A DNA stretch of 64,000 nt from Patescibacteria group bacterium (GTDB lineage Bacteria > Patescibacteriota > Patescibacteriia > Patescibacteriales > UBA12465): contig JBAZNJ010000004.1 of the NCBI GenBank assembly GCA_041649315.1, positions 25,060 to 89,059 on the forward strand, written 5' to 3'. Below are positions 43,968 through 64,000 of this stretch, piece by piece. The notes under the pieces are model-generated. The model did not search any database, was not told where the DNA came from, and saw only the letters and a program-made list of their open reading frames with translations. Position 1 is the first letter of the stretch. Every line of letters starts with the position of its first letter. Made by a program: the position numbers and the translations under genes.

Positions 43968-43994
43968 CAACATCGTGCTAGCACGAGGTAGTTT

Positions 43995-44024
43995 AAAACA
44001 GAGCTTTTAAAAGCTCTGTTTTTA
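43995..44024 (+). terminator. Perfect palindromic hairpin plus T-run downstream of tRNA-Ser
   Basis: aacagagctttt / aaaagctctgtt, followed by ttt. Confidence 0.7.
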
Positions 44025-44062
44025 ATTGGGAAAAAGCTAGTTTTTCCTTAAAATAAGCTATT

Positions 44063-44109
44063 TGACAACTTATGTCATTTTTTGACATTTTTATAAAATA
44101 TGTTAAAAT
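44063..44109 (+). promoter_or_regulatory. Promoter with phased TGACA/TGTCA half-sites upstream of the excisionase-type HTH gene
   Basis: Half-sites tgaca (44063-67), tgtca (44073-77) and tgaca (44083-87) sit at exact 10-bp spacing. atgtca-N5-tgacat forms an inverted repeat. The -35 TTGACA (44082-87) is followed by a 16-nt spacer, then TGtTAAAAT (44101-09). Confidence 0.5.
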
Positions 44110-44145
44110 TTATATAAAGAAAAGATAAATAAATTCTAAACTTTT

Positions 44146-44328
44146 ATGAGCGACCGAATAGAAAAACTTTTAACCATAGAGGAAGTAGCTGATATTTTGA
44201 GAGTGAGCACCAGAACTATTGTTAGGTATATAGAATCAGGAAAATTAAAAGCTTCTAAGATAGGTGTTTGGCGAATTAAGGAATCCGATGTTCACCTGTT
44301 TTTAGAGGAAACAAGTAATAAAAAATAA
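44146..44328 (+). CDS. Excisionase-family (MerR-like) HTH DNA-binding protein
   Basis: 60 aa. LLTIEEVADILRVSTRTIVRYIESGKLKASKIGVWRIKESDVHLFLEE is the classic 'DNA binding domain, excisionase family' pattern. Confidence 0.75.
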   Translation: MSDRIEKLLTIEEVADILRVSTRTIVRYIESGKLKASKIGVWRIKESDVHLFLEETSNKK

Positions 44329-44340
44329 GATTTAAATATT

Positions 44341-45915
44341 ATGGCTAATAATTTGAATAATTCTAAAGAACAAGAACGATCAGAGCTCCATCGAGCTATT
44401 TGGCAGATTGCTAATGACTTGCGAGGTAGTGTTGATGGTTGGGATTTTAAGCAGTATGTTCTTGGGATGCTCTTCTATCGTTTTATCAGCGAAAATCTTA
44501 CTAATTACATAAATGCTGATGAGCGCCGAACTGGCAAAAAAGATTTTGATTATGCCGTTATTTCTGACAAAGAAGCAGAATTTGGTCGTGTTGACACGGT
44601 AAAAGAAAAAGGTTTTTATATTTTGCCAAGTGAATTATTTGTAAATGTTTGTAAAAATGCACGTAATAATACAAATCTTAACGAAACTTTAGCCGAAGTA
44701 TTTCGCAATATTGAGAATTCAGCTAAAGGTGTAGATAGTGAAGATGATTTAAAAGGTCTTTTTGATGATATTGATATTAACTCTAAAAAATTAGGTAATA
44801 CTGTAGAACAAAGAAATCAAAAATTAGCCAAACTTTTGGAATCTATTGGTAATCTTCGTCTTGGTAATTATTCTGATAATACTATCGATGCGTTCGGCGA
44901 CGCTTATGAGTTTTTAATGACTATGTACGCCTCAAATGCTGGAAAGTCTGGTGGCGAGTTTTACACTCCTCAAGAAGTTGCCGAGCTTTTGGCAGAAATA
45001 ACTACAGTTGGGAAAAAAGAAGTTAATAAAGTATATGATCCTTGTTGTGGGTCTGGCTCTCTTCTTCTTAAGTTTGCCAAGGTTCTTGGAAAAGAAAATG
45101 TTAGACTTGGTTTTTATGGGCAAGAAATTAATATTACCACTTTCAATCTTTGTCGTATTAACATGTTTTTGCACGATATCAATTATAACCATTTCGATAT
45201 CGAGTTAGGAGACACATTAACTGATCCAAAACATTGGGACGATGAGCCATTTGACGCGATTGTTTCTAATCCCCCTTATTCTATTAATTGGGAAGGTGAT
45301 GCTAATCCGTTATTAATTAATGATCCGCGTTTTTCTCCTGCTGGCGTATTAGCCCCAAAAAGTAAGGCTGATTTAGCATTTATCATGCACATGCTTTCAT
45401 GGCTTTCGACTAGCGGAACAGCTGCAATTGTTGAATTTCCCGGAGTTTTATATCGTGGCGGAGCGGAACAAAAAATTCGTAAATATTTAGTTGATAATAA
45501 TTATATTGATACTGTAATTCAGTTGCCTCCAGATTTATTTTTTGGCGTAACGATTGCTACTTGTATTATTGTTCTTAAAAAAAGCAAGAAAGATAATAAA
45601 ACGTTGTTTATTGATGCTTCAAAAGAATTTGTTAGGGGTGGAAATAAAAATAAGTTAAGTGAAGAAAATCGTCTTAAGATTTTAGACACCTTTACTACTC
45701 GTAAAGATGCAGAATATTTTGCTAAATTAGTTGATAATAAAACCATCGCTGATAATGATTATAATATTGCTGTCTCTAGTTATGTCGTTAGTGAGGATAC
45801 TCGAGAGATAGTTGATGTTATAGAGCTTAATGAAAAAATCTCTAAGATTGTTGTTAGACAAAGTGAATTACGTGCGGCGATTGATAAGATTGTTGAAGAG
45901 ATTGAAAGCAAATAA
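44341..45915 (+). CDS. hsdM: Type I restriction-modification system methyltransferase subunit HsdM
   Basis: 524 aa. The N-terminal HsdM_N region has LWQIANDLRG-like IWQIANDLRGSVD. AdoMet motif VYDPCCGSGSLL and catalytic NPPY (VSNPPYS). Confidence 0.95.
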   Translation: MANNLNNSKEQERSELHRAIWQIANDLRGSVDGWDFKQYVLGMLFYRFISENLTNYINADERRTGKKDFDYAVISDKEAEFGRVDTVKEKGFYILPSELFVNVCKNARNNTNLNETLAEVFRNIENSAKGVDSEDDLKGLFDDIDINSKKLGNTVEQRNQKLAKLLESIGNLRLGNYSDNTIDAFGDAYEFLMTMYASNAGKSGGEFYTPQEVAELLAEITTVGKKEVNKVYDPCCGSGSLLLKFAKVLGKENVRLGFYGQEINITTFNLCRINMFLHDINYNHFDIELGDTLTDPKHWDDEPFDAIVSNPPYSINWEGDANPLLINDPRFSPAGVLAPKSKADLAFIMHMLSWLSTSGTAAIVEFPGVLYRGGAEQKIRKYLVDNNYIDTVIQLPPDLFFGVTIATCIIVLKKSKKDNKTLFIDASKEFVRGGNKNKLSEENRLKILDTFTTRKDAEYFAKLVDNKTIADNDYNIAVSSYVVSEDTREIVDVIELNEKISKIVVRQSELRAAIDKIVEEIESK

Positions 45916-45916
45916 T

Positions 45917-46408
45917 ATGGAAAAAGATATTTTATCCATTAAACAGCAAACTAGATTAGCTTTACCAACAGATAATTCATATTTATTTGGATTGGGTGTT
46001 GCCTTGTATGGATTCAACTCTATTAGTAGTTTTATGACTGAAATTATTTGTCATATTGACGATAGTCAAAATAGAACTAGATTATTAGATTTAACATCTG
46101 GAGAAGTTCTGAATATATTTCGGCAAACATTGAAAAATATAAAGTCTAAAAAACAATACAAAAGTATTTATACAATTATGAATGATGTGGCGAATATTTT
46201 CGAAATATTAAATTCAGAACGAACTGATTTTGTTCATGCTTATCCTATTACCAACAGAAGTAATGAGCAGATTTTACATCGCAGAAAGGATGAGAAGGGA
46301 AAATATTTTGAAGTAGACAATAATTTTTTAGATAGCTTTATTTCCCGATTGCATGATGTGAGTAGTGGATTATATAAAATACGTGCAATTGTAAAACCAC
46401 AAATTTAA
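45917..46408 (+). CDS. Small protein embedded between hsdM and hsdS; predicted all-alpha with an Rx4H motif (possible HEPN-like)
   Basis: The track ORF starts at 45830 inside hsdM. The ATG at 45917, 1 nt after the hsdM stop, gives 163 aa. The motif ILNSE-R-TDFV-H-AYP places Arg102 and His107 in Rx4H spacing. No other recognisable motif. Confidence 0.5.
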   Translation: MEKDILSIKQQTRLALPTDNSYLFGLGVALYGFNSISSFMTEIICHIDDSQNRTRLLDLTSGEVLNIFRQTLKNIKSKKQYKSIYTIMNDVANIFEILNSERTDFVHAYPITNRSNEQILHRRKDEKGKYFEVDNNFLDSFISRLHDVSSGLYKIRAIVKPQI

Positions 46409-46412
46409 TTGT

Positions 46413-47585
46413 ATGCATATTAATCAATCAAAAATTGAAGGGCTAATATCGGAACTTTGTCCAAAGGGTGTAGAAGTTTTTGGTTTAGGATCTATTTGTA
46501 AAATTGAAACAGGGAGGTTAAATGCCAATGCTGCTGTTGCAGGTGGTGATTATTTATTTTTTACAACCGCTAAAGAAATTAGCAAGATAGATAAATACCG
46601 ATGGGATACGGAAGCGTTACTTGTTGCTGGTAATGCGAATGTCGGTGATGTGAAACATTATATAGGAAAATTTGAAGCATATCAGAGAACTTATGTGTTA
46701 ACAAATTTTTTTAAGAAGATAAATGTTCGTTTTTTATATTTTGTTTTAAAAAATAATTTACAAGAATTTTTAAAAAGCAATTCAAATAGTGCGGCAATGA
46801 CTTATATTGTTTTATCTACGCTTGAAAACTTTAGAATCCCCGTCCCACCCCTCCCAATTCAAGAAGAAATTGTTAAAATTCTTGATAATTTTACAGAGCT
46901 GGAAGTAGAGCTGGAAGCAGAGCTGGAAGCAAGAAAAAATCAGTATGAACATTATAGGAACAAATTATTAACTTTTGGAAATGATATTGAATATAATAAT
47001 TTGGAACATATTTTTAATTTTAAAAATGGTTATACACCCTCAAAAGCAAAATCTAAATATTGGGAAAATGGAGATATACCATGGTTTAGAATGGAAGACA
47101 TAAGGAGTAACGGTAGAATTCTTGATAAATCGATACAATGTGTTAATAGATCTGGAGTAAAAGGAAAGGGTGTTTTTCCTAAAGATTCAATTATTGTAGC
47201 AACATCAGCAACGATTGGAGAGCATGCTTTAATTACTATACCTCATTTAACAAATCAGAGGTTTGTTTCTCTGTCTATAAAAGATGAATTAAAACAAAAA
47301 TTGAATATTAAATTTTTATTTTATTATTTTTTTGTAATAGATGAATGGTGTTTAAAAAATACAACTAAATCAAGCTTTTCGTCAGTAGATATGAATGGTT
47401 TTAGAAAATTTCCAATTCCAATTCCACCTATATCCGAACAAGAACGAATTGTTTCAACCCTTGATAAATTTGATGCGTTAGTAAATGATATTTCAATTGG
47501 TCTGCCAGCTGAACTTAAAGCTCGTCGTCAACAATATGAATATTATAGAAATAAACTTTTAACTTTCAAAGAATATGTCGGTTAA
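46413..47585 (+). CDS. hsdS: Type I R-M specificity subunit HsdS
   Basis: 390 aa. Two target-recognition domains are separated by a conserved coiled-coil helix, ...LEVELEAELEARKNQYEHYRNKLLTF. The C-terminal helix is similar: LPAELKARRQQYEYYRNKLLTF. Confidence 0.9.
   Translation: MHINQSKIEGLISELCPKGVEVFGLGSICKIETGRLNANAAVAGGDYLFFTTAKEISKIDKYRWDTEALLVAGNANVGDVKHYIGKFEAYQRTYVLTNFFKKINVRFLYFVLKNNLQEFLKSNSNSAAMTYIVLSTLENFRIPVPPLPIQEEIVKILDNFTELEVELEAELEARKNQYEHYRNKLLTFGNDIEYNNLEHIFNFKNGYTPSKAKSKYWENGDIPWFRMEDIRSNGRILDKSIQCVNRSGVKGKGVFPKDSIIVATSATIGEHALITIPHLTNQRFVSLSIKDELKQKLNIKFLFYYFFVIDEWCLKNTTKSSFSSVDMNGFRKFPIPIPPISEQERIVSTLDKFDALVNDISIGLPAELKARRQQYEYYRNKLLTFKEYVG
46896..46931 (+). repeat. 12-nt tandem repeat x3 (gagctggaagNa) in the central conserved region of hsdS
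   Basis: gagctggaagta, gagctggaagca, gagctggaagca, encoding ELEV-ELEA-ELEA. Confidence 0.9.
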
Positions 47586-50500
47586 TAATAAATACAATTT
47601 AGTTGCGGAGAGTACGCAGAGCACAGTTGTGGCTGAATATACTCCAAATGGAAAAAGAATCTCTGATTATCAAAGTGAGGCTGAATTAGAGAGTGCTTTT
47701 ATAGAACAGCTAAAAACTCAGGCTTATGAATATGTGGCCATAACCTCTGAGGCTGATTTAGTTTTGAATTTACGTAAGCAATTAGAGAAGTTAAATAATT
47801 TTAATTTTACTGACAGCGAATGGGATAATTTTTTTAATAGTGAAATTTCTAACCCTAATCAAAATATAGAAGATAAAACCGCGACCATTCAGGAAGATCA
47901 TATAAAAAACTTAGTTCGTGAAAATGGTTCAATAAAGAATGTTTATCTTTTAAAGAAGGATAATATTCATGATAATAATCTTCAGATTATTAATCAGTAT
48001 GCCACTGAGGATGGGCAAAGAGCTAATCGTTACGATGTTACAATTCTTGTTAATGGTTTACCTCTAATTCATGTTGAACTTAAACGTCGTGGAGTAGCTA
48101 TTCAGGAAGCCTTTAATCAAATTAATCGTTATCAGAGAGAAAGTTTTTGGGCTTCATCTGGTCTTTTCGAATATGTGCAATTGTTTGTAATTTCAAACGG
48201 CACTCATACAAAATATTATAGCAACACTACAAGATATCAGCATATCAAAGACTCTAATGATGGTGCTTCTAAGAAAGGTAAGCGCACTAGCAGCAGTTTT
48301 GAGTTTACTAGTTGGTGGGCTGATGCTACCAATAAACCAATTACTGATTTAATGGATTTTGCTAAGACATTTTTTTCTAAGCATGCTGTTTTAAATATTT
48401 TGACTAAATATTGCGTTTTTACGACTGACCACTTACTTTTAGTAATGCGTCCCTATCAAATTGTGGCTACTGAAAAGATATTGAATAGAATAGAAATAAG
48501 TACTAATTATAAAAAACTTGGCACCGTTGAGGCAGGTGGATATATTTGGCATACAACTGGCTCTGGAAAAACTTTGACTAGTTTTAAAACTGCTCAATTG
48601 GCTAGTAAATTGCCATATATTGATAAGGTTTTGTTTGTTGTCGATCGTAAGGATTTGGATTATCAGACAATGAAAGAGTATGATAAATTTGCCAAAGGAG
48701 CAGCTAATAGTAATACCAGTACAGCTATTTTAAAAAAGCAATTAGAAGATCCTAATGCTAATATTATTATTACTACTATTCAAAAACTGGATAGATTTAT
48801 TGGAAAAAATAAAGGGCATAATATTTTTGATGGTCATGTAGTTATTATATTTGATGAATGTCATCGATCCCAGTTTGGTGAAATGCATGCGGCTATTACT
48901 AAAGCCTTTAATAATTACCACCTTTTTGGTTTTACCGGTACTCCTATTTTTGCGATTAATTCTTCTTCTGGTGGGCGGATTGATTTTAAGACTACAGAGC
49001 AAGCCTTTGGTGAAAAATTACATGCCTATACTATTGTTAACGCTATTGCTGATAAAAATGTTTTACCATTTAAGGTCGATTATATTTCCACAGTTAAAGA
49101 GGCTGAAAATATTGAGGATAAAAAGGTTAGTGATATTGATCGAGAAGCAATTTTAGCCGCTCCTGAGCGCTTAGAAAATATTGTTCGCTATATTTGTGAA
49201 CACTTTGATCAAAAAACTAAACGCAATAGTTTTTATAAAATAAAAGAGAGAAGGTTGGCTGGATTTAATTCTATTTTTGCCGTTTCCTCTATTGATGTTG
49301 CAAAAAAGTATTATGCTGAATTTAAAAAACAACTTTTAGATTTACCAAGTGATAAGCGTCTTAAAATTGCGATAATTTATAGTTTTGGGGTTAATGATGA
49401 AGATGCCGATGGTTTAGTTGACGAAAATTTAGAGGACACTAGCGGACTAGATCTTAGTTCAAGAGATTTCTTAGAAAATGCGATTATTGATTACAATTCA
49501 ATCTTTGGTACTTCTTATGACACTTCATCTGATAAATTCCAAAATTATTATAAAGATGTCAGCCAAAGAGTAAAGGATAGAGAAGTTGATATTTTGATTG
49601 TAGTTAATATGTTTTTAACTGGCTTTGATGCCACCACTTTAAATACTCTATGGGTTGATAAAAATTTAAGATTGCACGGATTACTACAAGCCTATTCTCG
49701 CACGAATCGTATTTTAAATAGTGTTAAAACTTTTGGTAACATTGTTTGTTTTCGTAATTTAGAGAAAGCTACCAACGAATCAATTTCATTATTTGGTGAT
49801 AAAGAGGCTAGTGGCATTGTTTTGCTTAAATCTTATGCTGAATATTACAATGGCTATAAAGATGGTAATAAAGAAGTTCGAGGATATGTCAGCTTAGTTG
49901 ATGAATTAATGGAGAAATTTCCAGTTAGCGTTAGGATTGACAGCGAACTAGCTCAAAAAGAGTTTATTAAACTTTATAGCAATATTTTGCGTTTACGAAA
50001 TATTTTAACAACTTTTGACGAGTTTTCTAAAGATGAAATTTTTACAGAATATGATATTCAAGATTATCACAGCATGTATATTGATTTGTATAATGAATTT
50101 CGTAAAGCTAAAGAAAGCGAAAAAGAAAATGTTAATGATGATGTCGTGTTTGAAATGGAGCTTATTAAACAGGTCGACATTAATATTGATTATATCTTGG
50201 GATTAATTAAAAAATACCACGAAGATCATACCAAAAATCGAGAAATATTGGTTGATATTAATAAAGCGATTGATGCCAGCGTTGAATTAAGAAATAAAAA
50301 GGATTTGATCAATCAATTTATTTCCTCGCTCGATATTAATTCTGTTGTTGATGCGGACTGGCAGAGTTTTATGAATAAGAAAAAAGTTGAGGAGCTTGAA
50401 CAGATTATTAAAACTGAAGAACTCGATTATGAGGCTACGTATAAGTTTATTAAAAATTCCTTTAGAGATGGTTCAATTGCAGTTTCGGGTACGGCTATAA

Positions 50501-50649
50501 CTAAAGTTTTACCGCCAGTATCTCGATTTTCGCCAGATGGCGAACGAACAAAGAAGCGTGAAACTGTCTTAACAAAATTGACTAGCTTTTTTGAAAGGTT
50601 TTTTGATATTTCTGATGTAAAATTTTTCGACGGTAATCTAAAAAAGTAA
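47575..50649 (+). CDS. hsdR: Type I R-M restriction subunit HsdR (SF2 helicase/translocase + nuclease)
   Basis: 1024 aa. The N-terminal PD-(D/E)xK region reads RYDVTILVNGLPLIHVELKR. Helicase motif I HTTGSGKT, motif II IIFDECHRS and motif VI QAYSRTNR. It overlaps hsdS by 11 nt. Confidence 0.95.
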   Translation: MSVNNKYNLVAESTQSTVVAEYTPNGKRISDYQSEAELESAFIEQLKTQAYEYVAITSEADLVLNLRKQLEKLNNFNFTDSEWDNFFNSEISNPNQNIEDKTATIQEDHIKNLVRENGSIKNVYLLKKDNIHDNNLQIINQYATEDGQRANRYDVTILVNGLPLIHVELKRRGVAIQEAFNQINRYQRESFWASSGLFEYVQLFVISNGTHTKYYSNTTRYQHIKDSNDGASKKGKRTSSSFEFTSWWADATNKPITDLMDFAKTFFSKHAVLNILTKYCVFTTDHLLLVMRPYQIVATEKILNRIEISTNYKKLGTVEAGGYIWHTTGSGKTLTSFKTAQLASKLPYIDKVLFVVDRKDLDYQTMKEYDKFAKGAANSNTSTAILKKQLEDPNANIIITTIQKLDRFIGKNKGHNIFDGHVVIIFDECHRSQFGEMHAAITKAFNNYHLFGFTGTPIFAINSSSGGRIDFKTTEQAFGEKLHAYTIVNAIADKNVLPFKVDYISTVKEAENIEDKKVSDIDREAILAAPERLENIVRYICEHFDQKTKRNSFYKIKERRLAGFNSIFAVSSIDVAKKYYAEFKKQLLDLPSDKRLKIAIIYSFGVNDEDADGLVDENLEDTSGLDLSSRDFLENAIIDYNSIFGTSYDTSSDKFQNYYKDVSQRVKDREVDILIVVNMFLTGFDATTLNTLWVDKNLRLHGLLQAYSRTNRILNSVKTFGNIVCFRNLEKATNESISLFGDKEASGIVLLKSYAEYYNGYKDGNKEVRGYVSLVDELMEKFPVSVRIDSELAQKEFIKLYSNILRLRNILTTFDEFSKDEIFTEYDIQDYHSMYIDLYNEFRKAKESEKENVNDDVVFEMELIKQVDINIDYILGLIKKYHEDHTKNREILVDINKAIDASVELRNKKDLINQFISSLDINSVVDADWQSFMNKKKVEELEQIIKTEELDYEATYKFIKNSFRDGSIAVSGTAITKVLPPVSRFSPDGERTKKRETVLTKLTSFFERFFDISDVKFFDGNLKK

Positions 50650-50653: not shown

Positions 50654-51946
50654 ATGGCCAAGAAAAATGTTAAAGGCGAATATTTATATAAAGAAAATAA
50701 AACTAAAAAAGTATTTTATTTTCGTGATGATTTGCAAAAAATAAATATAATTTCCAGAATCGTTTTTAAAAATAAAAAACACGAAATCCATTATCCTTTT
50801 TCTAAAGACGGAAGACAGAAATATAATTATATTAAAGAAATATCTTATAATGGATTATCAAGTCCTCTTCCTAGAGGATTAATTAAGGACTCAAAATTAG
50901 GATATGGATTTACAAAAGTGCTATCACCTATAATTTATCAGATAGATAGGGTTCTTAAGCCTAATAAATTAGAAGTTTCAAATAATGGCAAAACAAGAAT
51001 AGACAAAAAAACATTATATATCAGTTATGCGGAACTAAATAAGGTGTACCCCAAAATTGATTCATTGCTTCAGCGACATTCAAAAGAAAAAGAGGTGACT
51101 GCACAAAAATTTCTATCCTTATTTTTCCCAAAAAACTTTAAAGATCTTAAAGACACGTATATTAAAGGAACTTTATACTCGATAATCTCTGATCAAGTTA
51201 AAGATGATGTAAAAAAAATATCTAAAGATGACTTTGACTCAATATTGGGGTTAACTTTAAGAGAATTAAAAAATCAAGGAGTAGAATCTAAGAAGGTGGT
51301 GTTGGAAACAAGAGAAAAAATTGAAAGGCGCTTTTTAGAAGACGCGATCATTTATTTTCAAAAACTATCACAAAGAAAACTTGACAATAATAAATTGGAG
51401 AAAGACTGGGAAAAATTTCTTATAGAAAATCCATGGATTATTTCTAATTTATTTGCAACACCCGTGTTCTTTTTTCAGAATCAAGCATACGTTGGCGGGA
51501 AAGAAATAAACAATTCTAATGGAAAGGTTACTGATTTTCTTTATAAAAATGAATTCACTGATAATATTGCTGTTATTGAGCTAAAAACGCATAAGACCAA
51601 TTTATTATCGTCTAAACCATACAGGGGCAAGGACGTCTATTCATTATCAGTAGAGCTTTCGGGCGCAGTTAATCAAGTTTTAAACCAGCGACAGAATTTA
51701 ATTCAAGAGTTTATAAAACTTAGAACTAAAGATGAGTGGTTTGAATCTTATAATCCAAAGTGTCTAGTTATTGCTGGTAGTATTGCTGACTTACCAAAAA
51801 ATGGAGCTAAAACTTTCGATATTTTTAGAAATAGCTTGCAGGGTGTGGAAATAATTACTTTCGATGAGTTACTTAAGAAACTCGAATTTTTTAATGTGTT
51901 AATTAAAGGCGGTAAGAAAAAAAGAGGGCGAGAAAAAAGGTTTTAA
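50654..51946 (+). CDS. Shedu-like protein (C-terminal DUF4263 PD-(D/E)xK nuclease domain, SduA-type) with an unassigned N-terminal region
   Basis: 430 aa. The C-terminal ~180 aa reads EKDWEKFLIENPWIISNLF...KVTDFLYKNEFTDNIAVIELKTHKT...AVNQVLNQRQNL...CLVIAGSIADL...EIITFDELL. This matches the DUF4263 pattern (D...E-x-K, Q-x-x-x-Y-like helix, ...TYDEL). It starts 5 nt after hsdR. Confidence 0.65.
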   Translation: MAKKNVKGEYLYKENKTKKVFYFRDDLQKINIISRIVFKNKKHEIHYPFSKDGRQKYNYIKEISYNGLSSPLPRGLIKDSKLGYGFTKVLSPIIYQIDRVLKPNKLEVSNNGKTRIDKKTLYISYAELNKVYPKIDSLLQRHSKEKEVTAQKFLSLFFPKNFKDLKDTYIKGTLYSIISDQVKDDVKKISKDDFDSILGLTLRELKNQGVESKKVVLETREKIERRFLEDAIIYFQKLSQRKLDNNKLEKDWEKFLIENPWIISNLFATPVFFFQNQAYVGGKEINNSNGKVTDFLYKNEFTDNIAVIELKTHKTNLLSSKPYRGKDVYSLSVELSGAVNQVLNQRQNLIQEFIKLRTKDEWFESYNPKCLVIAGSIADLPKNGAKTFDIFRNSLQGVEIITFDELLKKLEFFNVLIKGGKKKRGREKRF

Positions 51947-52218: not shown

Positions 52219-53136
52219 ATGCCACTTTTTAAACAGGATAGTAATAAATTATCCATCATTCAAGAAAAAAATATTGATCTAGAAAAAACAGTTCAAAAAT
52301 TAACTGAAAGTAATTTGGATAATATTTTTAGTTTGGAATTTGTTAGCACTGAATTTGCTTTGCATAACTTTAGAATTGACACCTTAGCCTTTGATCAAGA
52401 AAATAATTCTTTTGTTATTATAGAGTATAAAAGAGATCGAAGTTTCAGTGTTATTGATCAGGGTTATGCTTATTTGGCTTTAATGCTTAATAATAAGGCA
52501 GATTTTATTTTAGAATATAATGAGAAAACAAAGAATAGTCTAAAGAGGGACGATGTTGATTGGTCGCAGTCTAAGGTTATTTTTGTGGCAAATTCCTTTA
52601 CGTCTTATCAGATGAATGCGATTAATTTTAAAGATTTGCCGATAGAGCTTTGGGAAGTGAAAATGTATGATAATGATGTAGTTTTATATAACCAGTTATT
52701 ATCTCAAGACTCTAAAGAATCAATAAAAACTATTACTAAAAATAAAACTATAAATAAGGTAAGTAGCGAAGTTAAGGTGTATACGCTAGAGGATCATCTT
52801 AGCATTCCAGAAGATATAAAAAACCTATTTTTTGCTTTAAGAGAAAAAATTTTATCGCTTAGTGATTCCGTGGAAGAAAGACCTAAACAAAATTATGTGG
52901 CCTATCGATTAAAGAATGCTTTTGCCTATGTTCATAATCAACAGTCAAAAATAAAAATTCATTTGGAAATAAGAAAAAAAGATTTGGACGATCCAAAAAA
53001 TATGGCTAGAAATGTTGAAGGAATTGGACATCATGGCGGAGGAGAGACTGAGGTTATTTTAAATAGGTCTGAAGATTTAAATTACGTTTTTCTGCTAATA
53101 GAACAGGCTTATAATAGGATATCTAAAAAATCTTAA
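52219..53136 (+). CDS. PD-(D/E)xK nuclease-like N-terminal domain + DUF5655-like C-terminal domain protein
   Basis: 305 aa. FRIDTLAFDQENNSFVIIEYKRD...IDQG fits a D...E-x-K...Q nuclease core. The C-terminal ERPKQNYVAYRLKNAFAYVHNQQSKIKIHLEI resembles DUF5655. Its stop codon overlaps the stop of the convergent recombinase gene. Confidence 0.55.
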   Translation: MPLFKQDSNKLSIIQEKNIDLEKTVQKLTESNLDNIFSLEFVSTEFALHNFRIDTLAFDQENNSFVIIEYKRDRSFSVIDQGYAYLALMLNNKADFILEYNEKTKNSLKRDDVDWSQSKVIFVANSFTSYQMNAINFKDLPIELWEVKMYDNDVVLYNQLLSQDSKESIKTITKNKTINKVSSEVKVYTLEDHLSIPEDIKNLFFALREKILSLSDSVEERPKQNYVAYRLKNAFAYVHNQQSKIKIHLEIRKKDLDDPKNMARNVEGIGHHGGGETEVILNRSEDLNYVFLLIEQAYNRISKKS

Positions 53137-56013: not shown

Positions 56014-56428
56014 ATGTGTTTGTATTATTAATTATTAATTGCTCATCGGCTGGTAATAGTTTTGCCAGTTTCAAAGCATGTTTTACTACTTCTGCTTGAG
56101 CAGGAGTTAGTTCGTCGGTATCTTCCGTTTTGGAAGTTACCTCAATCTTATCTTTAAACCTCGGATTGCGATGTCTAAGCCAAAAGCTGATCGCTGACCA
56201 ATTCTTTTCTTTAATCATTGTTAAGAGTTGGCTTTCGCTCATGTCGTTTACTAGAGCCTCACCTTCGGCTAAGGCCTCATCCATTACTTTCGAGAATTTT
56301 TTGTCCTCTCGTTTCCAGCGATAAATGCTGTTACGAGATACACCTGATTTTTCACAGGCGACTAAAACGATAGGCACTTTCTTAAGCTCGTTAAAGAAAG
56401 CTTCTTGTAATCGGCTTTTCTTAGACAT
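55934..56428 (-). CDS. Terminase small subunit-like HTH protein
   Basis: 164 aa. N-terminal HTH (VACEKSGVSRNSIYRWKREDKKF). It sits immediately upstream of terL and overlaps it by 80 nt if both annotated starts are used. Confidence 0.55.
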   Translation of the reverse strand: MSKKSRLQEAFFNELKKVPIVLVACEKSGVSRNSIYRWKREDKKFSKVMDEALAEGEALVNDMSESQLLTMIKEKNWSAISFWLRHRNPRFKDKIEVTSKTEDTDELTPAQAEVVKHALKLAKLLPADEQLIINNTNTYDSKQDDSTRNGGANDPGQENKNGDN

Positions 56429-57701
56429 GCTCCACCACCTCCTTTCTGCCTGTTAATTTTCGATATCTTGCTATCGCCAAATCACAGAAAATTGGCTCAA
56501 GTTCTATCGCATAAACTTTCCTTTTTAATTGCTCACCAGCAATAATGGTGCTGGCTGATCCCGAGAAAGAATCAAGAATAATATCTCCAGGCTTAGTACA
56601 GCGCCTTATAGCCTTTTCGTAGAGCTTTGGGGGCTTACTGGTGGCATGTTCGTAATCTTTACCTGAAATACGCTTGGTAAGCCAAATATCTAAAGAATCA
56701 TAGATATCTTCAAACATTTCATTACCAGTACCAAGCTCTTTGTTTAATACCTCGTTATAGTTTTTAATATCAGAATTGATATATGGCTTGCCTTTAACCC
56801 CATAAACGGCAGGTTCATAACACTTATTGAAAGCAATTTTAGGAGTAGGGTTTTGTGAATTTTTAAGCCACAAACAAACTCGCTTATTTATTATTCCTAG
56901 TTCTCGATATAACTCTTGAAATAAGCCGATATATGTTTGGTCGCACCAGTAAAATACATGGCAGTCATTTTTAGTGTTCGGCAAAGCGGCTAAAAGAGAA
57001 TTCTTAATAAACTGCTTATATTCTTCATAACTTCTATTGTCATTAACCGTTCCGCCATAATCATTTTTACCGCCAATGCCTTTGGAATAGTCTAATTTAA
57101 TGTTATAGACTGGATCAGAAAATATCATTGAGGCCCTGTCATTACCAAATAATCTTTTTAGGTTATCGGGGTTGGTAGAATCGCCACAAAGTAGGCGATG
57201 TTCGCCTAAATGTATTAGGTCACCTGGTTTAGTTTTTGGTGTCTTTATCTTTTTTAACTCTGCCTCAACATCAAAGTCCTCATCTTTTACTTCTAATTCT
57301 TTATCCCAGAAATAAGATAAATCGACTTGATCAAAACCAATATCAACTAAGAGGTCTAGGTCAAATGTCTTTAACTTTTCAAAATCCCAATCACCACCTA
57401 AAGCGTTGCTGGAAATAAGATATCTTTTAGTCTCATCTTCGGTTAGTTGACGATTAGGGATCCTAACATCAATTAGCTCCTCACCTCTGCCAAGGATTTG
57501 AAGGGCCTTAACTCGCTGGTGGCCGGCCAAAATTTTGCCAGTTAAGTCGATGGCTGGAATTTCGACTAAATTAAATTTAGCCAAACTTTTCTTAAGATCA
57601 GACATTTGTTTATCACTGATCTTTCTAGGGTTAACATCTTGGGGAACAAGATCGTTAACTCTTTTTTGCACTGTGTGCCATTGGAGTTTTTCTGCTTTCA
57701 T
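56421..57701 (-). CDS. ParB-like nuclease domain fused to an N4/N6 DNA methyltransferase
   Basis: 426 aa. The N-terminus has a ParB-like NPRKISDKQMSDLKKSL...GHQRVKAL. The methyltransferase motif IV variant is SDPVYN. The C-terminal AdoMet motif is ILDSFSGSASTIIAG. Confidence 0.8.
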   Translation of the reverse strand: MKAEKLQWHTVQKRVNDLVPQDVNPRKISDKQMSDLKKSLAKFNLVEIPAIDLTGKILAGHQRVKALQILGRGEELIDVRIPNRQLTEDETKRYLISSNALGGDWDFEKLKTFDLDLLVDIGFDQVDLSYFWDKELEVKDEDFDVEAELKKIKTPKTKPGDLIHLGEHRLLCGDSTNPDNLKRLFGNDRASMIFSDPVYNIKLDYSKGIGGKNDYGGTVNDNRSYEEYKQFIKNSLLAALPNTKNDCHVFYWCDQTYIGLFQELYRELGIINKRVCLWLKNSQNPTPKIAFNKCYEPAVYGVKGKPYINSDIKNYNEVLNKELGTGNEMFEDIYDSLDIWLTKRISGKDYEHATSKPPKLYEKAIRRCTKPGDIILDSFSGSASTIIAGEQLKRKVYAIELEPIFCDLAIARYRKLTGRKEVVEHV

Positions 57702-57836: not shown

Positions 57837-58505
57837 CTACTTTTTTGACGAAAAATCAGATGGATAAATATCGTCAATTTCAGCTTTTTTCATATCATCT
57901 CTGGTTATTGGATTCCGAAATTCAGTAGCCTTTAATGATATGTTTGGAAAAAATAGTTTTTTAATATTTCCTTTAAATCCAAGGTCATTAATTATTTGGT
58001 CGAATTTTTTAACCATTTTACTATTCTTGTATTTGGCAAATTCTCCAGACGTTATTTTTTTATTTGGATTATTTACTATAAACATTGCGAAGTAATCATT
58101 TTCACTATCAAAGCGTGGCTTTGCTATAATTATTTCATTAACTTTTAATTTTCTATTTTCATAAGTGGCATGCAAAATAGCATTGGATTCGTTGAATATT
58201 AAATAATCGTTTAATTTATTGTCTTCCACATATTTTTTAAAGCCATCTAATAATTTTACCTCCACAGCTTGTCCGATCGGCTTTAATGCTTTATACATCA
58301 AGGTGTCCATATCATTCCTTACGGCTCTGTTATCCAGTATTTCTATTAATTTATTTTTGCGTAAAGTAATTAAGGTGGAGTTAATTTCTGAGTCAGATAA
58401 TCCAGAAAATTCAGTTCTTTGTATTACAACAATATCATCATCGGTAATTTGGTGAAACTTTAGTAAAATTAAGATTATTTGTCTTTTGATTTCCGCTCCT
58501 GTCAT
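57837..58505 (-). CDS. Hypothetical protein (222 aa), possible wHTH regulator
   Basis: Clean ORF, divergent from the 939-aa gene. The N-terminal ~60 aa (IILILLKFHQ...SEINSTLITLRKNKLIEIL) looks wHTH-like. The rest is unassigned. Confidence 0.5.
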   Translation of the reverse strand: MTGAEIKRQIILILLKFHQITDDDIVVIQRTEFSGLSDSEINSTLITLRKNKLIEILDNRAVRNDMDTLMYKALKPIGQAVEVKLLDGFKKYVEDNKLNDYLIFNESNAILHATYENRKLKVNEIIIAKPRFDSENDYFAMFIVNNPNKKITSGEFAKYKNSKMVKKFDQIINDLGFKGNIKKLFFPNISLKATEFRNPITRDDMKKAEIDDIYPSDFSSKK

Positions 58506-58619: not shown

Positions 58620-61439
58620 ATGCATTCCAAACTTCAAACAATTATTATTAACTCAATAAATGCTAATAACCAAACTTGTTTTGCTGGGATTATTTGTGCA
58701 AATGAAATATTTATTGTTATTTATGGTGTTATTTTTACAATGGTAATTTCTTTGGGTGTTTACATCTACGGATTGCAAAATAAAGGTGAAAAAATAACAT
58801 TAATTAAAAATACAAAGATAAAACAAGTTATTAGATATTGTTTGATATTTTTTTCTATAAGTTTTTTGTCATTGCCAGGCATAATTTATGAGTTTGTAAA
58901 TTTTTTACTGGTTGCGGTAGTACTTTATAACATTTTCAAAGCCTTTACTGAGATCTTTGCGTTTAATGAAAACGAACTTTCTGGCGAAATGGCTGTTAGA
59001 AAATTTAAAGAAGGTGTAATTCAAGATAAGCTTAAGGAATTTGAAAATATTAAGATTAAAAATGATATTTTTAAAAAATCTGTTGAAGATAAAAATGATA
59101 TATCAGTAGAAAGATTTTTATTCGATGAAAACAAGGATGCTTACCATTTTATTCGTGCGCAAAATTCTGGTTTTATTGTCGACATTAACCTAAACGTTCT
59201 TTCTTCGAAAGAGATTGATGGAGTTTCTTCGAAAGAGATTGATGGAGTTTCTTCAAAAGAGATTGATGAAGTTTTTTCGAAAAAAAATTCTTATTACATT
59301 CCTTATAATATTTCAAATGGTGCTCCGGTTGCTTTTGATAGTATTATTTTGGGCGTAAAGAAAGAGGAGGGACAAAAAATAGACGAAGAAAGATTGCGCT
59401 CTTTCATTTCTATTAGCGAAAAATACGAAAACCCAACTTCATATTTGGAAGCTGAAATGAGAACTTATTATTCTGAAATGTTTTCACTCATTAAAATAGA
59501 AGATACAAAAAGTCTTGAATTAAAACTTGAAGAATTTTCAAACTTTGTGAATCATTTTACAAATAGAGCTGAGTCATACGCGGATTTAATCCAATTTATT
59601 AATGATGATATTGTTTTTCCTTTACAAAGATTTTCGTTCAAACGAACTGAAATCGATTGTATTAGGGAAATGGTTTCTTTTTCGCTAAGCTATGTCTACC
59701 AATCACTTGATAAAAAATCAATTCAAACGTTTAATATTTTCTTAAGAAATGTTAGTCATGCTTTTTATCAGTCATTTAGTCTTAGTGTCGAAAAACAGAA
59801 TGAATTTAGTGATATATATTTTAGATGGTTAAATGAAATAGCAAAATATTCAATTAAACCAAAAATACAAAAAGGTGAAGATTATAATGAATATGTAATT
59901 AACTTTCTATCAAGTCTTAACGGATCATTGAAGGTTGCTTTTGATAATAAGAACATTGGAGCCTTCTCTAAAACTTTAGAACTATTAAATAATTCGTTCT
60001 CACGTGAGAATTATGAACACGATGAAGATAATTTATTAGATGAATTAGTGTTAACAAAAAAAGCCGTAATCTTTGGTTTTACTTCTTGGGCATATAAGTA
60101 TTATCAAGAAAGAAAAGATGAGGATTTCTACAAAAAAGCTCTCGCTGAGTTGTTGGTTGCGTTGCAAAAAGACCGTGTTTATTATTATGGAAATGTTCAG
60201 GATGACATAAATTATTACCTTTTAGTTTATTTGAAAGCAATAAAAATATCAGGAGAAAAGGGATCGTTTGGCTGGGATAGTTGGGGAATGCCAGAAGGGG
60301 TAGTATATACCGTTACTATACATAACGACGCGAAGAATTTACTTATAGATAGAATTCTTAGTACAATTATCAATAACCAAGCTCTAGAAATAGATATAAA
60401 AGCCGGAAGTTATAATGACGAGCTTTCTCTTATTAAGGAGGGCGATCAGCAGTTTGATCCGCTATTTGGAAAAAATAAGTTATCTTTCATTGCAACAATT
60501 GATCTTGATGACGAAAAATTTGCCCTCGCAAAAGCAAAATTATATGAAATATTCTCTCAATTAAGTTTAAAATATAATGAAGAAGTAAAAATAAAATTAA
60601 TCGATCAACCTCTTGATGATGGTAAGTTTGAGAAATTTGCTGAAGAGAATTTTAAGTCATATGAAAAATCGCGTATTCTGTACAGAATTAAGAAATTTAT
60701 TAAAGATGATGTTAAAAAAGTAGATGGTTTTGGTTACAACATGTTACTTCACAAAGAGCAGTTTGTTGAGGATACAAACATTCATTATTCAAATGAAAGC
60801 CAATTTGGTGAAAATCTTGCCCAATCAGAAGATAATAAGATTTTGGAGTCTATCTATAAAGATTTTGAAGATATTGTTGCTATAAAAAAAGATAAAATTT
60901 GGAAAAATATTCAAGCAGAAGAAAATTTATCAGCGATTGTTATTTGGACTAATGGACATTTTTTTATTGAAGACACTAATCCAGACAACTTTAAACCACA
61001 CTGGAAAGAAGATGATTTAGGAGAAGACAGGGGTTATCATTATCAGGGGTCAATAAACGGTACTCCTGTATACTTTGTATATAAATTAAAAGAGTATAAA
61101 AAATATGCCGACACCCTCTTTATTTTTAAACAGGATCCTTTTTCTGTTAAAGAGTTTGAAATTATAGAAGATCAAAATATTGATCAGGCTAATTTTAAGT
61201 TCAAAAAAAGTGAAAAAAATTGTTTGAATCTTTCTGTTACAAATTTATCTTCTCTTAACGAAGAAAGGACAAAGATTGTGGAAAAATGGATAGAATTAAA
61301 TCCAGGAAGCATAGCCGACAAGAACGCGGAGATTGAAAAATTAAAAACAAAAGTAGTCTTTAAATTTTACAAAGGACTGTCTATCGGAGATGTCAAAGTT
61401 ATTGATTCAAATACTAAAATATTTCATATTACTAAATAA
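58620..61439 (+). CDS. Large orphan protein (939 aa) with an N-terminal multi-TM anchor and a long soluble region of unknown function
   Basis: About four predicted TM helices lie in the first ~110 aa (FAGIICANEIFIVIYGVIFTMVISLGVYIY; VIRYCLIFFSISFLSLPGIIY; FVNFLLVAVVLYNIF). About 830 aa follow with no Walker, nuclease, protease or HTH motif recognisable by eye. A 3x (SSKEIDGV) repeat is present. Very AT-rich. Confidence 0.6.
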   Translation: MHSKLQTIIINSINANNQTCFAGIICANEIFIVIYGVIFTMVISLGVYIYGLQNKGEKITLIKNTKIKQVIRYCLIFFSISFLSLPGIIYEFVNFLLVAVVLYNIFKAFTEIFAFNENELSGEMAVRKFKEGVIQDKLKEFENIKIKNDIFKKSVEDKNDISVERFLFDENKDAYHFIRAQNSGFIVDINLNVLSSKEIDGVSSKEIDGVSSKEIDEVFSKKNSYYIPYNISNGAPVAFDSIILGVKKEEGQKIDEERLRSFISISEKYENPTSYLEAEMRTYYSEMFSLIKIEDTKSLELKLEEFSNFVNHFTNRAESYADLIQFINDDIVFPLQRFSFKRTEIDCIREMVSFSLSYVYQSLDKKSIQTFNIFLRNVSHAFYQSFSLSVEKQNEFSDIYFRWLNEIAKYSIKPKIQKGEDYNEYVINFLSSLNGSLKVAFDNKNIGAFSKTLELLNNSFSRENYEHDEDNLLDELVLTKKAVIFGFTSWAYKYYQERKDEDFYKKALAELLVALQKDRVYYYGNVQDDINYYLLVYLKAIKISGEKGSFGWDSWGMPEGVVYTVTIHNDAKNLLIDRILSTIINNQALEIDIKAGSYNDELSLIKEGDQQFDPLFGKNKLSFIATIDLDDEKFALAKAKLYEIFSQLSLKYNEEVKIKLIDQPLDDGKFEKFAEENFKSYEKSRILYRIKKFIKDDVKKVDGFGYNMLLHKEQFVEDTNIHYSNESQFGENLAQSEDNKILESIYKDFEDIVAIKKDKIWKNIQAEENLSAIVIWTNGHFFIEDTNPDNFKPHWKEDDLGEDRGYHYQGSINGTPVYFVYKLKEYKKYADTLFIFKQDPFSVKEFEIIEDQNIDQANFKFKKSEKNCLNLSVTNLSSLNEERTKIVEKWIELNPGSIADKNAEIEKLKTKVVFKFYKGLSIGDVKVIDSNTKIFHITK
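59210..59281 (+). repeat. 24-nt tandem repeat x3 inside the 939-aa gene
   Basis: tcttcgaaagagattgatggagtt x2 is perfect. A third unit, tcttcaaaagagattgatgaagtt, has 2 substitutions. The array encodes SSKEIDGV-SSKEIDGV-SSKEIDEV. Confidence 0.9.
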
Positions 61440-61730: not shown

Positions 61731-61740
61731 TATACGTTAT

Positions 61741-62163: not shown

Positions 62164-62202
62164 ATATTTTAAATAATTAGTTTTTATAAATTATCTAAAA
62201 AT

Positions 62203-62234: not shown

Positions 62235-62312
62235 ATTAAAAAATTCTAAATTATCTTGCCCTGTATTGCTCGCATTTCTGCGATTGTGACCAACAAAATA
62301 ATAAAGAATAAT

Positions 62313-62513: not shown

Positions 62514-62619
62514 ATTTTAATAATAAGTTAATATTCATATATTATATCTCAGTTTGCCTTTTATTTAAAATAGACTAATATAAAATAAAGCCCTTTATAG
62601 AGGGGGTAAAATATAATAA

Positions 62620-63063
62620 ATGCTCTCAATCGGCGATACATGTTCAATGCTTTTAATTCCGCTGTCATCTTCGGTGTCGTCTTTTGTTTGGCAGATAATT
62701 TATTTTTTGTGGTCATGGAACGGTTTTTGGATTCTGGTCGGTTTAGTCATTTGGACTGTCGTGGAGTTATTTACCCGGAATGGGAAATTTCATTATAATT
62801 CAGAAAACGGTTTTTCTCCTGCCTTTAATATATTTGTTGGCAGCGGACTGTATTGGGGGACACAATCCTTACTTCTTATCCTGTTGGAAAAATTGTTTGG
62901 TGAGTCGGTTTATTGTTTTGTCTGGCCATATCCAGTTCATTTGATTATCTTTGCTTCCACTGGTATTATTTTACATGTTACGGGTTTTTGGCCTTATCTT
63001 AAGGATCCAGGGGCCAAACGATCACACAAAAGAGGTAAACGTAGTCATAAACGAAGGATTTAA
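62620..63063 (+). CDS. Polytopic membrane protein with basic C-terminal tail (unknown function)
   Basis: 147 aa with about 4 TM helices. The C-terminus is KRSHKRGKRSHKRRI, a duplicated basic heptad. Confidence 0.5.
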   Translation: MLSIGDTCSMLLIPLSSSVSSFVWQIIYFLWSWNGFWILVGLVIWTVVELFTRNGKFHYNSENGFSPAFNIFVGSGLYWGTQSLLLILLEKLFGESVYCFVWPYPVHLIIFASTGIILHVTGFWPYLKDPGAKRSHKRGKRSHKRRI

Positions 63064-63336
63064 CATATTTATTAAAGTTACAACTATCTGTAACTTTATA
63101 CATCATACTTGTGTCACTTTTGTCACTTTTTAAGAAAAACAATAGCGCACGAGGATCTTATTTATTAAAGACTTAAAAAAGCACCGAAAAGCCTTGCTGG
63201 GCTTGCCGAAATTACGGTTCCAGCCCGAGGTAGCCCGCTAATAAAAATAAGGTCTATAGCCTTATTTTTTGTTATTTTAATATGTATTGACAATTAATTT
63301 AAAATGCAATACAATGCAAATATAATATATAATAAT

Positions 63337-63621
63337 ATGACTACTAAAAACAATGAACAGATTCAGATTAGAATTGATTCTAAAACTAAAAATGAAGCAA
63401 AAAAGATTTTGGATAGTTTGGGCATGGATATGAGCTCGGCTATAAAAATCTTTTTTCGCCAAGTCATAAATGCTAAAAATTTTCCTTGTGAGCTAAGAGG
63501 AGAAAATGGATTTACTTTACGGAACGCCGAGGTTTTACGTAAATCAATTATCGATGCAAAAAATAGCAACAAATCTTTTAATAAGGGATCGTTACTCATT
63601 AAAGATGCTTTGCATGATTGA
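63337..63621 (+). CDS. RelB/DinJ-family antitoxin
   Basis: The track ORF starts at 63304. The ATG at 63337 gives MTTKNNEQIQIRIDSKTKNEAKKILDSLGMDMSSAIKIFFRQV, the ribbon-helix-helix DinJ pattern. It ends 3 nt before the toxin gene. Confidence 0.75.
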   Translation: MTTKNNEQIQIRIDSKTKNEAKKILDSLGMDMSSAIKIFFRQVINAKNFPCELRGENGFTLRNAEVLRKSIIDAKNSNKSFNKGSLLIKDALHD

Positions 63622-63624
63622 TTT

Positions 63625-63897
63625 ATGTTCAGGCTAAAATATTCCAACCGTTTCAAGAAAGATCTAAGGCTTTATAAAAAGAATAGGGCAGTGCTTATTG
63701 AATTAGAGAAAGTTTTGGATATTTTGATTAAAGGAGGTAATTTACCCTTGAAAAACGCTAATCATCGTTTAGTTGGAGAATTTAAAGATTGTTTTGAGTG
63801 TCATATAAGGCCGGACATTCTTTTAATTTACAAAATAGAAAAATTAGAGATAACTATTTTATTGTTGAGAATCGGTTCACATTCAAAACTTTTTTAA
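63625..63897 (+). CDS. YafQ/RelE-family mRNA interferase toxin
   Basis: 90 aa. YSNRFKKDLRLYKK...L...PLKNANHRLVGEFKDCFECHIRPDILLIYKIE...LLLRIGSHSKLF matches the YafQ-type pattern. Confidence 0.75.
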   Translation: MFRLKYSNRFKKDLRLYKKNRAVLIELEKVLDILIKGGNLPLKNANHRLVGEFKDCFECHIRPDILLIYKIEKLEITILLLRIGSHSKLF

Positions 63898-63958
63898 GAA
63901 TAATATAATAGAGAATCAGTCCAGCTACATTTCACCCTCTCCGCCCGTAAAACAAAAT

Positions 63959-63977
63959 ACCCCAAAGGGGTGTTTTT
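63959..63977 (+). terminator. Short hairpin plus T-run downstream of the TA pair
   Basis: acccc-aaa-ggggt followed by gttttt. Confidence 0.4.
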
Positions 63978-64000
63978 AAAAAGTGATTTTTAAATGACAT

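Follow-up and report, generated by a model that had tools for sequence, protein, structure and literature searches.

A putative integrative element with a large serine recombinase and terminase genes at the 3' end of tRNA-Ser(GGA) in a Patescibacteria genome

The window analysed here is a stretch of 64,000 nucleotides from a Patescibacteria group bacterium (contig JBAZNJ010000004.1, positions 25,060 to 89,059). tRNA-Ser(GGA) was the sole tRNA gene detected in it by ARAGORN, and an Rfam scan returned nothing besides this gene. The left flank of the tRNA carries ligA, gatC, gatA and a gene for a DsbA-like thioredoxin. At the tRNA, the gene content switches from this ligA-gatC-gatA-dsbA series to restriction, defence, recombinase and terminase genes, and an AT-rich tract begins. 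The element described below lies in this tract and is bounded on its left by the tRNA gene, which is intact after the insertion. The coordinates of all features are given in Table 1.

Base composition was profiled along the window, which was lengthened by 2.5 kb using the near-identical contig L002 (12 mismatches in 10,376 bp). The guanine plus cytosine content (G+C) per 1-kb window was 0.40-0.51 at 39-44 kb vs 0.27-0.38 at 44-64 kb (Mann-Whitney p = 1e-8 for backbone vs island 1-kb windows). Mean G+C was 0.430 for positions 1-43880, 0.316 for 43969-63238, 0.337 for 63239-64975 and 0.427 beyond 64975 on the extended sequence. At 200-bp resolution, the drop was located in the intergenic DNA around tRNA-Ser(GGA). 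Maximum likelihood put one change point at 43,735 and the other, in the extended sequence, at 64,185. Correlation with the tetranucleotide profile of the element was 0.90-0.98 in every 2-kb window at 44-64 kb and 0.34-0.80 across most backbone windows. The tract measures about 20.2-21.0 kb, depending on whether its end is taken from the G+C (64,185) or from the point where homology to an empty site resumes (64,975). A preliminary description made from the sequence had claimed a sharp compositional break at the tRNA 3' end, an AT-rich island of at least 20 kb starting at tRNA-Ser(GGA) and a switch there from housekeeping to mobile and defence genes. The sliding G+C profile, the tetranucleotides and the change point at 43,735 confirmed the break, the measured tract agrees with the claimed length, and the switch was recovered in the Pfam, PADLOC and PHROG annotation. 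The right boundary had been placed outside the window. This is correct for the end of the AT-rich tract and incorrect for the mobile element, whose attR (63,238) lies inside.

Genes were annotated with Pfam, PADLOC and PHROGs. A complete Type I restriction-modification (R-M) system (HsdM/S/R), Shedu SduA and PDC-S18 form a contiguous defence island at 44.3-53.1 kb. The Resolvase domain of the recombinase (PF00239, 7e-22) spans residues 12-156, with the nucleophile S17 in YARKSTESDERQ (YARKST motif), and is followed by the C-terminal domains PF07508 (1.8e-12) and PF13408 (zinc ribbon, 1.3e-7). No Phage_integrase domain, and hence no tyrosine recombinase, was found in any open reading frame (ORF) of at least 80 aa. 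The Walker A (GSGKS), Walker B (LIICDD) and nuclease acidic motifs of the terminase large subunit (TerL) are intact in translation. The 222-aa protein has a 62% identical homologue at the same position in L086/L089, and regulators occupy this position in relatives. The 60-aa helix-turn-helix (HTH) protein of the HTH_17 family that adjoins the left end is a candidate regulator or directionality factor. Pfam gave no match at E<=0.01 for orf222, orf92, orf140, orf147 and the family core protein c6. Portal, capsid, tail and lysis genes were not recognised in the element with Pfam and PHROGs, some ORFs being without annotation.

Table 1. Features of the tRNA-Ser(GGA) locus (window coordinates)
Feature	Coordinates	Strand	Evidence
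tRNA-Ser(GGA), integration target	43881..43968	+	ARAGORN; Rfam RF00005, 55.2 bits, 43881-43967
attL common core CCGC	43965..43968	.	four-way alignment of attB, attL, attR, attP
P' arm AACATCGTGCTAGCACGAGGTAG	43969..43992	+	identical or nearly identical directly 3' of tRNA in 17-22 loci
Perfect 14-bp palindrome TCGTGCTAGCACGA within P' arm	43973..43986		
Element-borne terminator-like hairpin + T-run	43995..44022	+	fold -14.6 kcal/mol, z = -4.0; conserved in family
HTH_17 protein (excisionase/MerR-like), 60 aa	44146..44328	+	Pfam PF12728, 2.6e-17
HsdM, Type I R-M methylase (cargo)	44341..45915	+	Pfam N6_Mtase 5e-115, HsdM_N
ORF between hsdM and hsdS (cargo), without family match	45890..46408	+	called as 172 aa in L184
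HsdS specificity subunit (cargo)	46413..47585	+	Pfam Methylase_S 7e-58
HsdR restriction subunit (cargo)	47575..50649	+	Pfam HSDR_N, SWI2_SNF2, T1R_D3-like, EcoR124_C
Shedu SduA (DUF4263) defence nuclease (cargo)	50654..51946	+	SduA_C PF14082 7e-23; PADLOC SduA 9e-77
PDC-S18/DUF5655 candidate single-gene defence protein (cargo)	52219..53136	+	PADLOC PDC-S18 1.8e-116, full length
Large serine recombinase, 427 aa	53133..54416	-	Pfam Resolvase + Recombinase + Zn_ribbon_recom; PHROG 95 integrase 8e-62
Terminase large subunit TerL	54541..56013	-	PHROG 38, 3e-82
Terminase small subunit TerS (HTH)	55934..56428	-	PHROG 4044, 309, 4102
ParB-like N-terminal domain + N6/N4 DNA methyltransferase fusion	56421..57701	-	Pfam N6_N4_Mtase; PHROG 498, ParB-like PHROGs
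222-aa protein, divergent from right-hand cargo	57837..58505	-	no Pfam/PADLOC/PHROG match
orf939, 939-aa membrane-anchored helical-repeat protein (right cargo)	58620..61439	+	no Pfam/PADLOC/PHROG match
Two small predicted membrane proteins, 92 + 140 aa	61452..62163	+	translations; homologues in L086/L089
Second HTH_17 protein, 66 aa	62313..62513	-	Pfam PF12728, 2.5e-13
147-aa membrane protein, last element gene	62620..63063	+	88-94% conserved beside P end in L086-L089, L093
P arm ACGGTTCCAGCCCGAGGTAGCCCGC, last bases = attR core CCGC (63235-63238)	63214..63238	+	
Displaced host tRNA terminator hairpin (B' side)	63243..63269	+	fold -9.3 kcal/mol, z = -3.8; aligned to L083 attB
RelB/YafQ toxin-antitoxin pair, outside element	63304..63897	+	Pfam RelB 7e-12, YafQ 4e-28

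Relatives with an empty tRNA-Ser site were found in three independent contigs from other samples (L083, L084 and L085), 93% identical to the window over gatA, dsbA and the tRNA. In these contigs the tRNA is directly followed by its own terminator, and homology to the extended sequence begins again at 64,976, 5' of a gene for a polysaccharide flippase. The distance from the tRNA end to this point is 21.0 kb in the window vs 1.24 kb in the three contigs. The segment from the methylase through the 147-aa gene is also present in L086-L089 and L093, where homology always ends at 63,238. The same attL and attR contexts were present in a second assembly.

The attachment sites were then mapped on the empty site by a four-way alignment. 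attB (L083) reads GGGTTCGAATCCCTCTCTCTCCGC|TAATAAAAATATCGC, attL of the window ...CTCTCTCCGC|AACATCGTGCTAGCACGAGGTAG and attR of the window ACGGTTCCAGCCCGAGGTAGCCCGC|TAATAAAAATAAGG. An uninterrupted element junction, present in L086, L087 and L088, reads ACGGTTCCAGCCCGAGGTAGCCCGC|AACATCGTGCTAGCAC. In the left halves, attB and attL end with ...CTCTCCGC, and attR and the attP-type junction with ...GTAGCCCGC. In the right halves, attB and attR start with TAATAAAAATA, and attL and the attP-type junction with AACATCGTGC. The two element ends, P' (AACATCGTGCTAGCAC...) and P (...GGTTCCAGCCCGAGGTAGCCCGC), are thus contiguous in other contigs. The only sequence common to attB, attP, attL and attR is CCGC, which corresponds to the last two bases of the acceptor stem, the discriminator base and one further base. 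Recombination of one circular element with the tRNA end explains all four half-sites, and the element therefore spans 43969-63238 (19,270 bp). A shared core of 4 bp fits a large serine recombinase. A second copy of the 24-nt tRNA end was not found in the window, even when 3 mismatches were allowed, and a repeat search of the island flanks gave no meaningful direct repeat, just chance AT-rich repeats; the tRNA 3' end is thus without a long direct repeat, as first described.

The P arm 25-mer is identical at the element end in L086, L087, L093, L100, L102 and L105, and shares 13 of its 25 positions with the tRNA end (GGTTC.A..CC...CCGC). A consensus terminator scan gave no match at either junction, and the hairpins listed in Table 1 were found by direct folding instead. 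The displaced hairpin begins with TAATAAAAATA, as does the empty site, whose own terminator hairpin folds at -18.5 kcal/mol. Conservation of the 14-bp palindrome TCGTGCTAGCACGA extends to recombinases of 66-68% identity and to members that target tRNA-Gln, and a GTGCTAGCAC-type palindrome is kept in P' of many distant recombinase relatives. The sequence CGAGGTAG is present as a direct repeat in both P and P'. The palindrome and the direct repeats may be sites for a dimeric HTH protein.

The uninterrupted P|P' junction lies at 4315-4353 in L086 and at 1739-1777 in L087 and L088 (three contigs, three samples). P' is partly degenerate in these contigs, with CTAAGCAC replacing CGAGGTAG, and the HTH_17 gene is missing there. 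The DNA that follows the junction is homologous to the left-arm cargo of L102. In the empty-site relatives, an extra segment of about 660 bp, absent from the window, lies between dsbA and tRNA-Ser (L083 2707-3367, also L084 and L085). It encodes a 223-aa ORF with a weak LAGLIDADG_3 match, and a homing-endonuclease insertion is possible. The closest species-representative genome (L003, 67% GatA identity) was also tried as an empty site and was rejected, as it gave no boundaries. It keeps ligA-gatCA-dsbA-tRNA-Ser(GGA) and then diverges completely, and the RelB/YafQ pair further downstream in it shows no orthology to that of the window (27% identity or none).

To place the element in a wider family, a recombinase scan of Joint Genome Institute (JGI) metagenomes was used, in which 80 loci were examined among at least 539 relatives. 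At no fewer than 17 loci, P' with at most 2 mismatches abuts the 3' end of a tRNA-Ser gene with anticodon GGA, GCT, TGA, CGA or ACT. The tRNA-Ser bodies differ among these loci and the hosts are therefore independent. At 7 loci the P arm abuts varied, AT-rich, terminator-like host sequence, and 4 loci with both ends contain elements of 14.5, 15.9, 16.6 and 17.1 kb. The target follows the identity of the recombinase to that of the window: at 75% or more it is tRNA-Ser, at 64.9-68.7% it is tRNA-Ser, tRNA-Gln or tRNA-Asn, and at 59% (L174, L177) the recombinase lies 125-152 bp from tRNA-Glu or tRNA-Asp. In L117 (2315-2418), L102, L104 and L111, the target tRNA-Ser belongs to a small tRNA cluster (Ser-Ser, Ser-Arg), and in L117 the P end directly abuts a tRNA-Arg gene. 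The P end of L093 is immediately followed by another element (10562-15135), which encodes a 550-aa serine recombinase, a rolling-circle Rep (REP_ORF2-G2P) and Zot. This neighbour resembles an inovirus-type prophage, suggesting tandem use of the same junction.

The invariant core of the family consists of the ParB-methylase, TerS, TerL and the recombinase; in many members it is joined by a 132-aa protein and by an S24 (LexA/CI-like) protein. The 60-aa HTH_17 gene beside P' is 96-100% identical among members, whereas the gene content from there to the recombinase is entirely different. More than 10 loci combine P' and HTH_17 with the recombinase core and differ in the cargo between them. The sequence collection lists the exact 60-aa protein in 198 blocks, and it was found at dsbA-side, recG-side and gatB-side tRNA loci with different cargo. 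A nested two-element model, drawn from the position of the recombinase in mid-island and from the homology of L093 that starts at its stop codon, was rejected because P' and HTH_17 are linked with the recombinase core throughout the family. For the same reason two cargo slots can be defined, one from P' to the recombinase and one from the methylase to P. The family is widespread and apparently not previously described; a full-text literature search of incomplete coverage returned no description of it in Patescibacteria or elsewhere.

These data are very probably explained by a single 19,270-bp integrative mobile element (43969-63238) that uses its own serine recombinase as integrase. The 427-aa recombinase would recombine a circular attP (P-CCGC-P') with an attB in which CCGC is flanked by the T-arm and acceptor end of tRNA-Ser on one side and by the AT-rich terminator on the other, and the crossover would take place within CCGC. 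Recognition appears to occur mainly via the tRNA half-site, because any tRNA-Ser isoacceptor serves while the B' half varies by host. The element would supply a replacement terminator for the tRNA, leaving the original hairpin after attR, and one or both HTH_17 proteins may regulate the element or direct its excision. The preliminary description had attributed the island to a serine recombinase acting at a tRNA without a long duplication. This is supported by the CCGC core, by the 17 or more tRNA-Ser loci and by the lack of a tyrosine integrase.

Several points weigh against this explanation or its extension to a phage satellite. The link between the recombinase and the att sites is correlative. 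The distance from the recombinase gene is about 9 kb to attL and likewise to attR, and attP is next to int in most serine-integrase elements; the recombinase is in mid-element because about 9 kb of defence cargo separate it from attL. The P|P' junction of L086-L088 may stem from a circular element, from a tandem or from a fresh copy beside a remnant. Annotation of the window copy revealed no primase, helicase or Rep module and no clear repressor, and a replication module was not recognised in the family core either. The small ORFs and the 222-aa and 939-aa proteins may hide missing functions or structural proteins. Finally, no helper phage, pac/cos site or virion-derived reads are known for the element, and a satellite lifestyle is a prediction from its genes.

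The packaging genes were analysed for selection and for their context in relatives. dN/dS (the ratio of non-synonymous to synonymous substitution rates), computed against relatives at saturated synonymous divergence, was 0.025 for the recombinase, 0.05 for TerL, 0.11-0.15 for TerS and 0.05 for the methylase. All four core genes are under strong purifying selection. In IMG/VR, the TerL relatives of at least 39% identity all belong to a methylase-TerS-TerL plus recombinase unit. More than 60 loci share the capsid-less architecture, at TerL identities as low as 39-45%, and relatives within the TerL clade of the window were all without a recognised portal or capsid gene. The nearest TerL outgroup (L218, 33%) is an ordinary phage with the order TerS-TerL-portal-minor head-major head. 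Two distant members (L197 3173-6189 and L204 3815-6734) carry two tandem TerL genes, 46-48% identical to TerL of the window. The packaging genes are probably functional and specific to a lineage of capsid-less elements.

The element may spread as a phage satellite, its own terminase packaging the excised DNA into the capsids of a helper phage. Because no replication module or repressor was found in this copy, and no helper or virion evidence, this step is held tentatively, as a possibility somewhat short of even. The integrated element may instead not be a satellite at all. It would then spread by natural transformation, the host encoding type IV pilus/competence-like genes, or otherwise, and the terminase and methylase would serve, for instance, in a defence that interferes with the packaging of phage or in processing of the excised element. 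This is consistent with the lack of a replication module, of an identified helper and of capsid-remodelling genes, with the defensive nature of the remaining cargo and with pilM/pilC-type genes in the window, which are known from the preliminary description only. However, both terminase subunits are co-conserved under purifying selection with intact ATPase and nuclease motifs, for which packaging is the simplest explanation. TerS-bearing satellites (SaPIs and PICIs, see below) are also an established precedent. Spread by other means is a genuine possibility, to which we give distinctly less than even weight.

A decayed prophage, that is, a temperate phage with a serine integrase whose portal-to-lysis genes have been deleted, would account for the order ParB-methylase, TerS, TerL, which is typical of the start of a phage packaging module, and for the identity of 23-27% between this TerL and the terminases of isolated phages. 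Conservation of the packaging genes in a capsid-less lineage, with core dN/dS values of 0.025-0.15 at saturated dS, disfavours decay. Moreover, the same architecture recurs in the more than 60 loci mentioned above with no portal or capsid gene in the TerL clade, and complete two-ended elements all measure 14.5-19.3 kb. We consider a decayed prophage very improbable.

Two successive events could also have built the island, with an older defence island (43969-53132), native to the tRNA site or acquired there earlier, to whose right edge a 10.1-kb recombinase element (53133-63238) was later added. The recombinase stop overlaps the PDC-S18 stop (53133-53136), the nucleotide homology of L093 begins exactly at 53133, and the module at 53-58 kb has a slightly higher G+C (0.34-0.38). 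Against this stand the linkage of the tRNA-side P' and HTH_17 with the recombinase core across varied cargo and the DNA right of 63238, which is the start of the native tRNA terminator in the empty site. There is no CCGC-type junction at 53133, and the 93%-identical relative lacks both parts. Little credence is left for two events. A classical tRNA island inserted by a since-lost tyrosine integrase, with the serine recombinase as a mere passenger, would have in its favour the adjacency to a tRNA 3' end, a hallmark of such islands, but is scarcely credible given that their common cores are usually 25-76 bp, that this one is 4 bp with no repeat of the tRNA end, that no tyrosine recombinase or remnant of one was found and that recombinase identity tracks the identity of the target tRNA.

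With a single serine-recombinase element retained, a broader proposal can be made, which we regard as speculative and more doubtful than not. The element would be the first described member of a large family of phage satellites found across the Patescibacteria, defined by a full terminase (TerS and TerL) and a ParB-methylase without a capsid and by a compact 427-aa integrase. This integrase would read the T-arm and acceptor end that tRNA-Ser genes have in common, with tRNA-Gln, Asn, Glu or Asp read in other clades, and the family would be the main carrier of anti-phage defence among these ultra-small bacteria.

The cargo of the family was found to consist mostly of anti-phage systems. Matches in relatives include Type I and Type III R-M, PDC-S06 (PrrC-like), a defence-type reverse transcriptase and PDC-S53, as well as Shedu, PDC-S02, PD-T4-3 and a ThsB-TIR plus caspase-like pair. 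The right cargo slot of the window holds orf939, which has 35 homologues, none with a Pfam domain, and is absent from L086/L089. Its confident AlphaFold2 model (predicted local distance difference test score, pLDDT, 80.8) gave no significant match in the PDB and has membrane helices at the N-terminus, a helical solenoid and an alpha/beta domain at the C-terminus. A 24-nt tandem repeat in 3 copies (59200-59282) encodes SSKEIDGV three times and falls in the low-confidence loop of the model (residues 197-221). One homologue lies inside another recombinase element. Another, 41% identical, is located between mreB and the DNA polymerase III delta' gene in a different Patescibacteria genome (L181 8966-13545), and the family therefore also has chromosomal members in a housekeeping context. 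A defence role for orf939 is a guess from its position alone.

The low-GC tail right of the element (63239-64975) is a separate hypervariable stretch and not part of the element. Its RelB/YafQ pair is absent from the empty-site relative. A 223-aa ORF of the tail (64173-64844 of the extended sequence; L002 10549-11220) is 30% identical to the 231-aa ORF found at the same position in L083 (3927-4622), and the DNA flanking this hypervariable 223/231-aa ORF beside the tRNA hot spot is 93% identical. Further low-GC patches (27-36% G+C) occur upstream of ligA at 25063-26310, 28279-29673, 35458-36861 and 37795-39076. Their products are two AAA_14/DUF4143 ATPases, a Schlafen AlbA_2/HATPase_c_4 protein, and an AbiEii toxin together with a 193-aa partner encoded upstream of it. 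The tetranucleotide profile at 34-38 kb is island-like (r = 0.91-0.93).

The genomes of Patescibacteria (candidate phyla radiation) are tiny, few of their mobile elements have been characterised, and to our knowledge no conjugation is known in them. The family described here is abundant. Between lineages it transfers Type I/III restriction, Shedu, reverse-transcriptase defence and several candidate systems, and much of the turnover of the accessory genome in Patescibacteria could be due to it. Serine integrases that act at the extreme 3' end of a tRNA, with a 4-bp core and with every tRNA-Ser isoacceptor accepted, are unusual. For genome engineering, they offer a collection of small integrases that have diversified in nature and whose attP/attB pairs are known. 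If packaging is true, a capsid-less element with both terminase subunits would widen the known satellite strategies. The conserved orf939 in the right cargo slot is a lead for new biology.

The element was compared with known systems. Like the phage-inducible chromosomal islands (PICIs) and the Staphylococcus aureus pathogenicity islands (SaPIs), it falls in the size range of 10-20 kb, is integrated site-specifically, has no capsid, tail or lysis genes and has its own small terminase. It also shares with them small excisionase/AlpA-like HTH proteins and variable slots with anti-phage defence genes. Unlike them, it has a large serine and not a tyrosine recombinase, a full TerL besides TerS and a Patescibacteria host, and its dependence on a helper is hypothetical. 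The annotation recognised in it neither a primase/replication module nor an Stl-like master repressor, nor genes that redirect capsid size. The PICI-like elements (PLEs) of Vibrio cholerae are likewise satellites of about 18 kb that integrate with a large serine recombinase and defend the host against phage. However, PLEs target superintegron repeats and not tRNA genes and encode no TerL, the library searches gave no match that would indicate a sequence relationship, and the cargo of the element consists of generic defence systems. Capsid-forming PICIs (cf-PICIs) are satellites that, like it, have their own packaging machinery, but they encode capsid, portal, protease and connector, none of which was recognised here.

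The tycheposons of Prochlorococcus and other tRNA-linked cargo islands are also adjacent to tRNA genes, carry modular cargo and form tandem arrays at tRNA hot spots, and some members carry a packaging gene (terS or the major capsid protein gene, MCP). Among elements of the tycheposon type, 910 of 937 use tyrosine recombinases and leave partial tRNA repeats, whereas this element has a serine recombinase, a 4-bp core and different core genes. It shares with the serine-integrase prophages (phiC31, Bxb1, A118 and SPbeta) a three-domain recombinase, short att sites of low identity and the lack of a target duplication. phiC31, Bxb1, A118 and SPbeta are complete phages whose usual targets are protein-coding genes or intergenic sites; unlike them, the element family targets the extreme tRNA 3' end and is without virion genes. 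Of the features of classical tyrosine-integrase tRNA islands, adjacency to a tRNA, deviant composition and absence from relatives were found, and a tyrosine recombinase and a repeat were not. With its defence cargo the element resembles satellites of the PICI or PLE type, and the chemistry of its integration would be that of serine-integrase elements. The element is thus not a classical tyrosine-integrase tRNA island, not a cf-PICI and not an intact prophage. It is ordinary as a tRNA genomic island, and what distinguishes it is a serine integrase specific for tRNA ends, a terminase-only core and its breadth in the phylum.

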